From Escherichia phage YX22: DNA of 64,000 nucleotides. The position numbers and the translations under genes were made by a program. Under the pieces are notes generated by a model. The model was given only the letters and a program-made list of their open reading frames with translations. It did not search any database and was not told the origin of the DNA. Each line of letters opens with the position of its first letter. The first letter of the stretch is position 1. The DNA lies in sequence record OR776998, one strand, 5' to 3'. Of this stretch, positions 44,990-47,471 are shown piece after piece.

Positions 44990-45079
44990 GCGTGATTAGC
45001 TCAGATGCTTGAGAGCGCCCCGTTGGCGAGTCGACACCAACATATAGGGGAGGACGGATCTGCCAGGTTCCATCACGCC
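44990..45079 (+). ncRNA. tRNA-like module (aberrant anticodon and T arms)
   Basis: Perfect 7-bp acceptor GCGTGAT/ATCACGC and a D arm TA-GCTC..GAGC. The anticodon arm is replaced by a 9-bp arm with a 10-nt loop. Confidence 0.35.
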
Positions 45080-45765
45080 GACAACATTATGAGTCTTCGT
45101 AGAGGGTTCATAATGTTGCGTCAAAGGGCAACACAGGCTCCTGTTGGTAGAATTAACTTGATTCATAGTTCCTGCTGATCTTCCCGGATTCGAAGGAGCA
45201 CCAACAGGCGAGGCCGGATGCGTAAGTTCCGGCAAAACGATGGTGGCACCCTCGCCAACAAAATAAAAGGTTTTATCAATAACGGGTTACAAAGTATAGT
45301 TAACCCACTGAACGGCAAGCTGTTTGAGTCCTGGTCACTCATAGCGTTGTGAACTAAGACAGGTACGTTTAGGACTCAAACAGGTTTTCGTTGTGCGTGA
45401 CTTTGCGGGTTTTTAGAAACTGACCAAGCAAATAAATGCTAATGATTCCGAAGTTCTGATGGCGGCGTAATAGCCTATAAGTCAGCGGGGTATTCCAGTT
45501 CCCTGTAACAGAATCTGGCGCATCGCGGCCCTGAGATGTGATTAATAAGTCAGGGCATACAATGACAATTCATTCACATGATAACTTGTCAGCAATCTGT
45601 GAAATTGTTTGTAGGCATACGAACAAGAGGTAATTCGAGGGAGAATCGGCTCCTACCGTGTAACAGACCAAGTGACGTACCACTAAACCGTCCCGGGCGG
45701 TCGAAATGTGGGGAGATGAGAGTGGTCCCCTGAAGTTATCAGTTGAATGAATTGTTAAATAAAAT

Positions 45766-45891
45766 GCCGTTACATCTGACTGTCCAAAGGGGATAATCTC
45801 CTGAGTAAGCAGAGGTGGGTTGCCTAAGTCAGATGGGATGTAAGGTCAACGCTGGCCGAACATTTGGGTTCGACTCCCTAAAACGGCACCA
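45766..45891 (+). ncRNA. 126-nt tRNA-like RNA ending in ACCA
   Basis: GCCGTT/AACGGC acceptor, GGGTTCGACTCCC T arm, and an encoded A-CCA. The core is expanded by a 9-bp helix (45773-81 with 45827-35). Confidence 0.4.
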
Positions 45892-46804
45892 CATCTTTGA
45901 GGATATTCTCACGAGTATCTTGAAAGATGTGAGCGAAGTCTTGCCATCAGCCCTGATCCCTGGCAGGTGAAGGGCACACAAATCGAAGTGCCTTGACAAT
46001 TTATCTTAAACCCAAAGGTTGATCTACAAATTGGGCGGCCAATCCGGTGGACGATAACAGCATATTGGGCCATACTGTTGAGTCAGGGCACTTCGATTTG
46101 TGAACTTGAGAGAGCATTGGGTGAAATAGACCATGCCTTGCAGATTGCGATGCCTACACATTCCGGACACTGGTGGGCACCAAGAAGAACTCAGTAGCAG
46201 ACGAGCCATCAGGGTTAGCTACCCGGCGCGGCGAGGACTGGGAGGCCGAACTAAGGGGAAACCCGAGACAGGCGTAGTATTCTCAAGTTCACAAAATGAA
46301 GAGCATTTAAAGAGTTCGATTCTCTTTCAGGCCATTCGTGGTGTGATGTGAGTCATGAATGTTCTTCATCTTTGGGTGATTTTATGTTGCCGGGCTATCA
46401 ACCCATGCTTGCTGGAGCAACCAGCGGCTCTGAATCAACCAGCCAGCCTCGTTTGGTCCGAGCGTTAGAGGACAAGTTGCTTCTACATAGAAGCTGCGAG
46501 TTTTAACATTTGGTTGCAACTTTGATGGCTCTGGATTTTATAAACCATGTCTATGGGTGACGCGGGATCTTTAGTACCAGAGCTATCAAAGTTGTGTCCA
46601 ACCCGATCTTGCAAGCCCGTATCCCTGTATGGTTAAGACTTGCAAGTGGAAAGCCCTGGAAAAATAAACGCCTGTGGCGAGGCTATGGTGCAAGCCAAAG
46701 ACCCACAGAAGCGCATGCCGTGAGGCGCACAAACAGGCATGCATGAACTGATCATGCACAAACGGGATAAAGGGTTGACAGTCCTTGGTTGGTCACAATA
46801 ATTT

Positions 46805-46881
46805 GGTCCTGTAGCTCAGTCGGTTAGAGCAGTGAACTCATAATTCATTGGTCGTTGGTTCAAATCCAACCAGGATCACCA
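46805..46881 (+). tRNA. tRNA with CAU anticodon (Met by anticodon; ileX-like, so possibly Ile2 reading AUA)
   Basis: Full cloverleaf: GGTCCTG/CAGGATC acceptor, GCTC..GAGC D arm, GTGAA-CTCATAA-TTCAT, GTTGG-TTCAAAT-CCAAC, encoded CCA. The variable loop TTGGTCG matches E. coli ileX. Confidence 0.9.
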
Positions 46882-47134: not shown

Positions 47135-47223
47135 GGAAGGTTGCCCGAGAGGTTTAAGGGACTCGACTGCTAATCGAGTGGGGCTTTTAGCCCCCGAAGG
47201 TTCGAATCCTTCACCTTCCGCCA
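47135..47223 (+). tRNA. tRNA-Ser (GCU)
   Basis: Class II cloverleaf: GGAAGGT/ACCTTCC, CTCGA-CTGCTAA-TCGAG, long variable arm GGGGC-tttta-GCCCC, GAAGG-TTCGAAT-CCTTC, G-CCA. Confidence 0.9.
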
Positions 47224-47442: not shown

Positions 47443-47471
47443 AGCCGGATATCCTATCCGGCTTTCTTTTT
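47443..47471 (+). terminator. rho-independent terminator ending the RNA/tRNA unit
   Basis: AGCCGGATA-tcc-TATCCGGCT followed by TTCTTTTT. Confidence 0.75.

Follow-up and report, generated by a model that had tools for sequence, protein, structure and literature searches.

An Expanded tRNA-Like RNA Next to a tmRNA-Like Tag Template in Vi1-Like Phages

Genes and Features at the Locus

The window considered here, i.e., the whole analyzed stretch of 64,000 nucleotides (nt) from Escherichia phage YX22 (record OR776998), contains a 126-nt tRNA-like RNA in non-coding sequence that is flanked by a baseplate gene and a tRNA cluster. A preliminary description, made from the letters of the sequence, had singled this element out as an RNA with tRNA-like ends and an unusually expanded core. 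It shares the + strand with a module whose tag frame lies about 330 nt upstream and which resembles the tag-coding part of transfer-messenger RNA (tmRNA; ssrA in Escherichia coli), preceded by a leader complementary to host tmRNA. This context of tag template and antisense leader gives the 126-nt RNA its most likely meaning, and tag templates antisense to host tmRNA are a more novel part of the locus than the 126-nt RNA itself. The 801 bases around the element match 444 phage records, the best matches being Escherichia phages PC3 and PH4 (96.9% identity; Ackermannviridae, Aglimvirinae), followed by members of Kuttervirus and Taipeivirus. The features of the locus are as follows.

45273-45300, + strand: putative sigma-70-like promoter TTATCA-16-TATAGT from a consensus scan, predicted start at about 45307
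45317-45386, + strand: 5' hairpin H1, AAGCUGUUUGAGUCCU paired with AGGACUCAAACAGGUU, proposed from compensatory changes
45386-45437, + strand: leader of the tag RNA, antisense to host tmRNA
45438-45470, + strand: tmRNA-type tag frame, ANDSEVLMAA*, proposed from sub-threshold Rfam matches and frame conservation
45456-45485, + strand: hairpin P5 around the stop codon, CUGA x UCAG plus GGC x GCC, proposed from covariation
45486-45518, + strand: pseudoknot PK2, stem CGGGG/CCCUG, loop CCAG x downstream CUGG, proposed from covariation
45527-45561, + strand: pseudoknot PK3 around the invariant GUGAUUAAUAA, stem GCCCUGA/UCAGGGC; the stem is retained among homologues, the second stem is putative
45562-45765, + strand: lineage-specific spacer of 204 nt between PK3 and the 126-nt RNA, from architecture comparison
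45766-45891, + strand: 126-nt tRNA-like RNA, from fold, homologues, covariation and covariance model
45890-45931, + strand: hairpin H3 (CACAUCUUU x AAAGAUGUG), which starts within the CCA of the 126-nt RNA

Fold, Ends and Conservation of the 126-nt RNA

The acceptor pairing proposed in the preliminary description is present: GCCGTT (45766-71) pairs with AACGGC (45882-87) over 6 base pairs (bp), plus A.A, and is followed by the discriminator A45888 and an encoded CCA (45889-91). The T arm (45866-45878) has the loop TTCGACT, as expected from the near-canonical 5-bp arm that had been claimed, but its stem comprises three G-C pairs (45866-68 with 45876-78), whereas the additional U.U and U-A are optional and compete with the neighboring helix. 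In the core, the 9-bp helix A (CATCTGACT, 45773-81, with AGTCAGATG, 45827-35) encloses two inner hairpins (45789-45801 and 45813-45825) exactly as described earlier, and the bipartite helix B (45836-45865, 6 + 5 bp) leads over to the T arm. The hairpin at 45844-57, formerly likened to a variable arm, does pair, but it is merely the inner tip of this longer helix. Likewise, the expansion said to stand in place of the D and anticodon arms is conserved and covarying, although the picture of a replacement is looser than had been claimed. The minimum free energy of the element is -45.1 kcal/mol (z = -2.61; 4 of 200 shuffles were as stable), and the corresponding layout matches the fold described here.

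The element had further been suggested as a possible substrate of RNase P or the CCA-adding enzyme. The minimal features of such substrates (a stack of about 12 bp, UUCRANY, N-CCA) are recovered by sequence and covariation in the form of the 6-bp acceptor plus A.A, a T stem of 3-5 bp, the loop UUCGACU and A-CCA. The "CA" of the encoded CCA doubles as part of the H3 stem (45890-45931), so that conservation of the CCA alone is no proof of CCA function. In EP75-type phages, the H3 stem has 14-15 bp and encloses an insert with a canonical T arm, which together form an "extended-acceptor" tRNA-like module. Judged by this counterpart, H3 is the remnant of an extended-stem tRNA-like module. Modules similar to the EP75 extended-acceptor type flank the tag RNA in other phage families.

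A query of 151 bases around the 126-nt RNA matched 198 phage genomes, 195 of them over at least 80% of the query and 193 with 90-99% identity. Matches in Kuttervirus begin at query base 14-15, i.e., 2-3 nt ahead of the 5' G, and among 16 distinct homologues the sequence preceding the element is of at least four different kinds. Among 12 distinct homologues, 99.3% of cells pair and seven pairs are changed on both sides, a number that none of 500 shuffles reached and that compares with 0-2 in slid controls; nearly all of these both-side changes stem from a single diverged homologue, Salmonella phage GEC_vB_N6. In this phage, an acceptor U-A is replaced by C-G, two pairs of helix A and all three of inner hairpin 2 are exchanged, and an A-U of helix B has become G-C, while the other homologues contribute wobble-compatible single changes. 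All four main helices have compensatory and wobble-compatible substitutions. The inner segment 45782-45812 hardly varies, even in GEC_vB_N6, and this near-invariance points to a possible further binding function. A covariance model built from the homologues, a check that had been proposed earlier, scores 154.8 bits on the element itself and detects a 66-nt mini version in N4-like phages (E = 0.004 and 0.017). Moreover, the homologues reveal no recent disruption of an ordinary tRNA, as the expansion itself is conserved and covaries. The element is very probably a real structured RNA and, by the measure of conservation and covariation, a discrete, conserved and selected tRNA-like module of Vi1-like (Ackermannviridae) phages.

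Relation of the 126-nt RNA to tRNA and tmRNA

The 126-nt RNA is neither a decoding tRNA nor a complete tmRNA. ARAGORN, including its tmRNA mode, makes no call on it, and Rfam at E <= 10 places no tRNA (RF00005), tmRNA, YrlA or other family on 45766-45891. The only tRNA calls in the whole window (ARAGORN, Rfam) are tRNA-Met (46805-46881) and tRNA-Ser (47135-47223). YrlA, microRNA (miRNA)-like and other Rfam families yielded chance-level matches only; YrlA itself was absent at E <= 10 from the window region and at E <= 5 from EP75. All 12 homologues have C:G and not G:U at pair 3:70, hence the alanine identity pair that defines tmRNA is absent. The discriminator varies (the window has A, most phages have U, and PC3 lacks it), and this variation, together with the overlap of CCA and H3 stem, renders a role in aminoacylation doubtful.

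Several ways of completing a tmRNA from the surrounding region were rejected. A one-piece tmRNA over 45300-45891 lacks an upstream 5' strand complementary to AAAACGGC, the sole regional GCCGTT being the one at 45766. For a permuted tmRNA, possible acceptor pieces upstream were considered: relatives do not retain the AACGGC at 45311-16, the GGGTTA...TAACCC "hairpin" falls on a promoter-like site that is itself conserved, and a T1-like hairpin with AACUAUC abutting H1 lies exactly where the Skatevirus, Roufvirus and L107 loci have a promoter. Neither a conserved upstream acceptor piece nor a downstream partner for the 5' GAUAGUU was found. Both acceptor strands come after the tag frame, so the arrangement is not circularly permuted. 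Short blocks of the 126-nt RNA, namely CUGAGUAAGCA, GGAUGUAAGG and the T arm, occur in the same order at nt 294-363 of E. coli tmRNA, toward its 3' end. These blocks are suggestive of homology at most, with a local alignment score of 29 that is not significant (shuffle mean 24.5, standard deviation 4.3, maximum 44). An antisense role toward host tmRNA was rejected for the 126-nt RNA and for the segment 45470-45765 (z = -0.3 and -0.6, respectively), as was docking of the 126-nt RNA on the tag-RNA leader (z = -1.6, a value matched by 19 of 300 shuffles).

A tmRNA-Like Tag Template Upstream

The tag frame (AAAUAAAU GCU AAU GAU UCC GAA GUU CUG AUG GCG GCG UAA) has no start codon, and an in-frame UAG is located 8 codons upstream. 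Features of the mRNA-like domain of tmRNA that recur in the module include the start-less frame, a hydrophobic end, U(-5)A(-4) as seen by alignment to the RF00023 consensus, the stop codon in a hairpin, and pseudoknots. A permissive Rfam scan yielded two matches below threshold at 45327-45522, both to permuted-tmRNA models: RF04321 reached 24 bits (E = 0.037, gathering score 47) and RF01849 19.3 bits (E = 0.005, gathering score 50). The Rfam matches of the tag module go solely to permuted-tmRNA models, at 24-33 bits and thus below the gathering score of 47. ARAGORN leaves the module uncalled in the six loci run (window, EP75, PC3, KFS-SE2, IME11, HK620), and it does not pass the Rfam thresholds in the loci checked.

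Covariation argues strongly for the predicted downstream structures. Across 63 sequences, the closing pair of P5 alternates between G-C and A-U in a ratio of 32:31, with the outer stem paired in 100%. PK2, described on this set with the stem CAAGG/CCUUG and the loop CCGA x UCGG, features three both-side pair changes per stem, and 99.4% and 95.2% of cells pair. The PK3 stem has at least 4 bp in 63 of 63 sequences and occurs in 19 different stem sequences that flank the invariant GUGAUUAAUAA. At the 5' end, H1 exists in two compensatory versions within Ackermannviridae, UUGAGUCCU/AGGACUCAA and UUGGGCAC/GGUGCUCAA, whereas in other phage lineages either a comparable helix or a promoter takes this position. 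The promoter-like sequence at 45273-45300 is conserved in all Ackermannviridae homologues read. A pseudoknot 1 (PK1) inside the phage leader was rejected because no covariation was found, and conservation of the leader is better explained by its host target.

The module is found in 434 phage records including unrelated families, e.g., the P22-like HK620, the N4-like IME11, Skatevirus KFS-SE2 and T1-like phages, and a pattern scan of IMG/VR yielded 76 loci. Among 74 loci, 29 nucleotide versions and 14 peptides occur, always with 10 codons plus stop (e.g., ANDDVVLMAA, ANEEMYLAVA, ANDNTFLAVA, ANDEQFLAVA, and ANDDLMLMAA). Synonymous variation affects codons 1, 2, 7, and 10; the constancy of codons 1-3 is partly imposed, as the locus filter demanded GCN AAY GA. 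In HK620, the module is positioned between pR'/qut and the late terminator, and a copy of this type was found in 157 of 5426 complete E. coli genomes, O26:H11 Shiga toxin-producing strains included. In 25 sampled E. coli matches the module is unannotated, except for one partial match overlapping a hypothetical protein. In lambdoid phages (L005 = HK620, 1310-1900), the tag module and its tRNA-like tail fill the interval from pR'/qut to the late terminator tQ, a position by which both would be late-leader RNA from pR'. In Salmonella phage Se-G, an HNH endonuclease gene is inserted in the region of the module and splits the match in two. Phage tmRNAs detectable by ARAGORN are known in other groups (PMC9004378, PMC4131195, PMC11915505). 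The literature searched contains no report of tmRNA-like genes in these phages, of these tags, or of antisense RNAs to tmRNA, and the text supplements of the tmRNA database paper list no phage entries. Judged from its sequence, the module is a real tmRNA-like tag template that has gone unannotated.

Complementarity of the Leader to Host tmRNA

The leaders were compared with ssrA of E. coli. By RNAduplex, whose energies leave out the cost of opening PK1, the window leader (45386-45434) forms 41 bp with ssrA (37 Watson-Crick and 4 G.U) at -43.6 kcal/mol, the target being tmRNA nt 24-103 and mainly 57-103 (z = -5.3; 0 of 200 shuffles as good). Similar values were obtained for the leaders of HK620 (37 bp, -40.7 kcal/mol, nt 54-106), lambdoid L027 (41 bp, -47.3 kcal/mol, nt 54-106) and N4-like L113 (37 bp, -41.5 kcal/mol, nt 56-108). 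Tested against 200 dinucleotide shuffles each, 38 distinct leaders gave z from -1.9 to -6.5; for 23 of them no shuffle was as good, and for the worst leader nine were. A control with shuffled tmRNA had a mean of -30.3 (standard deviation 2.3, best -38.2). Again, gapped alignment of the leaders to the reverse complement of ssrA nt 68-105 resulted in z = 4.5-10.3, with z = 6.1 for the window, while the same-sense control remained at background. BLAST did not detect the antisense match because of bulges and G.U pairs, so the antisense claim rests on RNAduplex and gapped alignment with shuffles.

Intramolecular pairing of the leader with its own tag region was rejected (z = -0.17), and in 30 of 31 leaders host tmRNA is the better partner than the own tag region, by 12.4 kcal/mol on average. 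The window leader shows no complementarity to its own downstream RNA or to the 126-nt RNA. The core motif can be read as G(C/U)G(A/G)(C/U)U(U/A)UG(C/U)GG, in which all substitutions would be transitions that keep pairing with a host G or U, and the N4-like variant GCGAUUAUGCGG as one that would pair in a shifted register. Across hosts, complementarity is strongest for Escherichia-type tmRNAs (-43), followed by Pasteurellales and Aeromonadaceae (-33) and Yersinia (-29). The tmRNA target is nearly invariant across Enterobacterales, and the sole "Aeromonas" phage has an ordinary leader. In the Skatevirus, Roufvirus and L107 loci, transcription from a promoter TTGACA-17-TAGATT is predicted to begin precisely with the first nucleotide of the antisense leader. 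The PK1 variants GGUUGG and GGUUUG are matched by the leader variants CUGACC and CGAACC, respectively (L004, L050, L064, L087, L089, L113, L130; host panel). These variants may represent host tuning. On balance, the pairing of leader and host tmRNA is probably functional.

Possible Linkage of the tRNA-Like RNA and the Tag Template

No terminator-like site separates the tag module from the 126-nt RNA, the first one on the + strand being at 47443. In Kuttervirus L008 and L014, the spacer is absent and the 126-nt RNA starts 7-8 nt past PK3 (...CUCCCGUCGACAAU followed by GCCGUU). EP75-type phages have an extra T-arm element inserted, which ends with CUCCAAU-C-CCA two bases before the 126-nt RNA, while the window and PC3 feature the 204-nt spacer. 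Locus L073 carries a bona fide tRNA (57.7 bits) directly after PK3, and at the same place HK620 and T1-like phages exhibit a local cloverleaf, UGUGGUG...[GCCGG-loop-CCGGC]CACCACA-N-(CCA). In N4-like loci, the 66-nt mini tRNA-like element matched by the covariance model of the 126-nt RNA lies slightly further downstream. The fact that unrelated families place a tRNA or tRNA-like element right after PK3 argues for a linkage of such elements with the tag module. G3:U70 was observed in none of the phage tRNA-like elements read, and SmpB is not encoded by these phages; both fit a tRNA-like domain supplied by the host.

According to these observations, the 126-nt RNA would be a tRNA-like 3' module that is functionally tied to a phage anti-tmRNA tag-RNA unit, an interpretation to which we assign a probability of roughly 50%. 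Nevertheless, several points weigh against it. Kuttervirus L055 keeps the tag RNA without the 126-nt RNA. Enterobacter phage fGh-Ecl02 (L007, 800-964) carries a deletion chimera without the 5' acceptor strand, in which the shared GTGGGTT...AGATGG connects a KFS-SE2-like unit, represented by its end (..GAGATGGTGCG), with the 3' half of the 126-nt RNA; this fusion suggests that the two unit types are paralogous. Klebsiella-phage records number 24 in the search with the 126-nt RNA and 107 in the tag search, the latter including phages outside Ackermannviridae. The distance of 204 nt from PK3 in the window and a -10-like hexamer abutting the 5' end make separate expression of the 126-nt RNA possible. 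Furthermore, the 126-nt RNA has no significant complementarity to the leader or host tmRNA and no significant tmRNA homology, and tRNA-like relics are to be expected in a tRNA gene cluster anyway, which makes coincidence possible.

A/T-rich -10-like hexamers at 45760-45765 and 46797-46802 end 1-3 nt before the 5' ends of the 126-nt RNA and tRNA-Met, respectively. They are too close to represent a sigma-70 start at the mature 5' end and may constitute a phage-specific promoter or processing context. Besides, further tRNA-like or structured elements surround the locus. At 44993-45079, an 87-nt element conserved in EP75 and fGh-Ecl02 features a 7-bp acceptor-like helix (GCGTGAT/ATCACGC) and a D-arm-like TAGCTCAG..GAG without a T arm, and is not called by ARAGORN or Rfam. 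At 45242-45257, a scar consisting of GGTG joined to GCACCCTCGCCA marks a 67-nt mini tRNA-like element whose interior is precisely deleted in the window. This element is intact in EP75; there it is annotated as "tRNA-Ala" and combines U3.G70 with a canonical T arm, an anticodon arm being absent. Downstream, two long near-perfect hairpins (45966-46100 and 46508-46607) give chance-level matches to miRNA models and are conserved in EP75 and other relatives.

Proposed Mode of Action and Alternative Explanations

If the tRNA-like RNA and the tag RNA belong to one unit, it would be transcribed from about 45307, and host RNase P would cut 5' of G45766; established substrate rules suggest this site, as the acceptor/T-arm stack, the UUCGACU loop and N-CCA represent a minimal substrate. 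The cut and tRNA-type 3' trimming would release an upstream tag RNA with a defined 3' end and a stable tRNA-like RNA of about 126 nt. The tRNA and tRNA-like elements that flank the tag RNA could thus act as RNase P punctuation setting its 3' end, with the 126-nt RNA as a stable by-product that possibly has a function of its own. The leader is predicted to pair with nt ~57-105 of host tmRNA, a stretch that runs from the 3' part of PK1 through the linker and the resume codon to the end of the first five codons, and the duplex computed from this complementarity would mask the host tag template. The distance from the duplex to the phage resume codon, which retains U(-5)A(-4), would be about 12 nt, compared with 11 nt from PK1 in E. 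coli. This native-like spacing and the kept U(-5)A(-4) raise the possibility that the host tRNA-like domain hands the ribosome to the phage tag.

Such tag swapping would mean that a trans-acting RNA (45386-45561) docks on host tmRNA and that rescued proteins receive a tag of the ANDSEVLMAA type and not ANDENYALAA. This is a tentative proposal, which we would sooner expect to fail than to hold. The duplex would replace pseudoknot 1 and bury the host resume codon and tag, and the device would span Ackermannviridae, N4-like, T1-like and Skatevirus phages as well as lambdoid prophages, in the last case as pR' late leader. It would constitute a natural "two-piece tmRNA", with one piece from the host and the other from the virus.

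Among the alternatives, the one that best withstands the evidence, though on the whole unlikely, considers the 126-nt RNA as an independent stable tRNA-like RNA, comparable to species 1 and 2 of phage T4, that would serve a tRNA-binding factor (e.g., SmpB, EF-Tu, a modification enzyme or a tRNA-targeting defense nuclease) as decoy or ligand and whose adjacency to the tag RNA is incidental. The nearly invariant inner 30 nt, retained even in GEC_vB_N6, the behavior as a discrete cassette that follows at least four kinds of upstream sequence and the persistence of the tag RNA without it in L055 would all agree with such a role. Moreover, RNAs consisting of the tRNA-like domain (TLD) only have been reported as tmRNA inhibitors, perhaps through SmpB titration (PMC4131195). 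The -10-like hexamer directly upstream also speaks for an independent RNA, but transcription from the predicted -10 would start inside the 126-nt RNA. In addition, no partner or target has been identified, and incidental adjacency agrees poorly with the tRNA or tRNA-like elements that unrelated families have immediately after PK3.

It is quite improbable that the 126-nt RNA represents the phage's own aminoacylated tRNA-like domain, forming a self-contained two-piece tmRNA with the tag RNA. In favor of such an arrangement, the tag RNA has no tRNA-like domain of its own, the 126-nt RNA combines acceptor stem and T arm with an encoded N-CCA, and base-paired two-piece tmRNAs, phage-encoded ones included, are known (PMC11915505, PMC9004378). 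However, pair 3:70 is C:G, the discriminator is A, U or absent, and the complementarity between the 126-nt RNA and the tag RNA is not significant (z = -1.6); the leader is complementary to host tmRNA instead, and some phages keep the tag RNA although their 126-nt RNA is missing or broken.

Even less probable is a functionless decaying relic of a tRNA or tmRNA gene. The tRNA-like scars around the locus (45242-45257, hairpin H3, the fGh-Ecl02 chimera) and the colinear blocks shared with the 3' end of tmRNA from E. coli (CUGAGUAAGCA, GGAUGUAAGG, T arm) would suit decay, whereas the compensatory and wobble-compatible substitutions in all four main helices and the conservation of 90-99% across subfamilies, with the flanks replaced, disfavor it. 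Finally, overlapping open reading frames of 51 and 56 amino acids and "hypothetical protein" features under some GenBank matches do not save the idea that the stretch is part of a small protein-coding gene, which is excluded by one-base indels among the homologues and by substitutions that track base pairing and not codons.

Significance

The 126-nt RNA adds a well-supported, unannotated structured RNA family to therapeutic and biocontrol phages (relatives of Kuttervirus, Taipeivirus, and Agtrevirus) and illustrates that "odd tRNA-like" sequences of phage tRNA clusters can be under selection. Additionally, a widespread tmRNA-like tag template with a leader antisense to host tmRNA escapes ARAGORN and Rfam in the six loci checked, an annotation gap that concerns phage-therapy safety screens reporting "no tmRNA". 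If the pairing is functional, several unrelated phage families would inhibit or re-program bacterial ribosome rescue and protein tagging; this kind of host takeover is not described in the literature searched. As far as it can be read from sequence comparison, the 126-nt RNA together with the tag locus suggests that these phages tamper with ribosome rescue. The locus bears on the question why some phages depend on or interfere with trans-translation, which is now testable.

Comparison With Known Systems

Species 1 and 2 of phage T4 (rnaC and rnaD) are encoded in a tRNA cluster, have a length of about 120-140 nt, and possess RNase P-processed tRNA-like ends with CCA. They resemble the 126-nt RNA in these respects, but are not known to be linked to a tmRNA-like tag template.

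The tag module agrees with ssrA of Enterobacterales in the tag pattern AN[DE]x...L[AM][AV]A, in U(-5)A(-4), in a hairpin around its stop codon and in the pseudoknots that follow the tag, and the 126-nt RNA shares the T loop and ACCA. In contrast to ssrA, both the module and the 126-nt RNA fail the thresholds of ARAGORN and Rfam, and no tRNA-like domain is built from 5' and 3' ends around the phage tag. Moreover, the 5' part of the module is the reverse complement of ssrA nt 68-105.

A further counterpart to the 126-nt RNA itself is offered by TLD-only tmRNA without a coding sequence, as described for mycobacteriophage DS6A and some plastid and mitochondrial forms, which likewise combines acceptor, T arm and closing helix without an inner tag frame and can be phage-borne as well. 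TLD-only RNAs have been reported to inhibit tmRNA, perhaps via SmpB titration (PMC4131195, PMC11915505). Unlike these, the 126-nt RNA lacks G3:U70 and significant sequence or covariance-model similarity to tmRNA, has a 9-bp helix with two inner hairpins and a long bipartite arm, and adjoins a separate tag-template RNA.

In two-piece tmRNA, a coding RNA pairs with a separate tRNA-like RNA, and tRNA-processing enzymes cut the precursor (PMC11915505). The permuted two-piece forms of Alpha- and Betaproteobacteria, cyanobacteria and some marine phages are those to which the sub-threshold Rfam matches of the tag module point, and the phage locus would share their scheme of a coding RNA that needs a separate tRNA-like RNA and of a precursor cut by tRNA-processing enzymes. 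Still, the phage arrangement is not permuted, as both acceptor strands of the 126-nt RNA come after the tag, and the partner of the phage coding RNA appears to be the host tmRNA instead of an acceptor piece of the phage.

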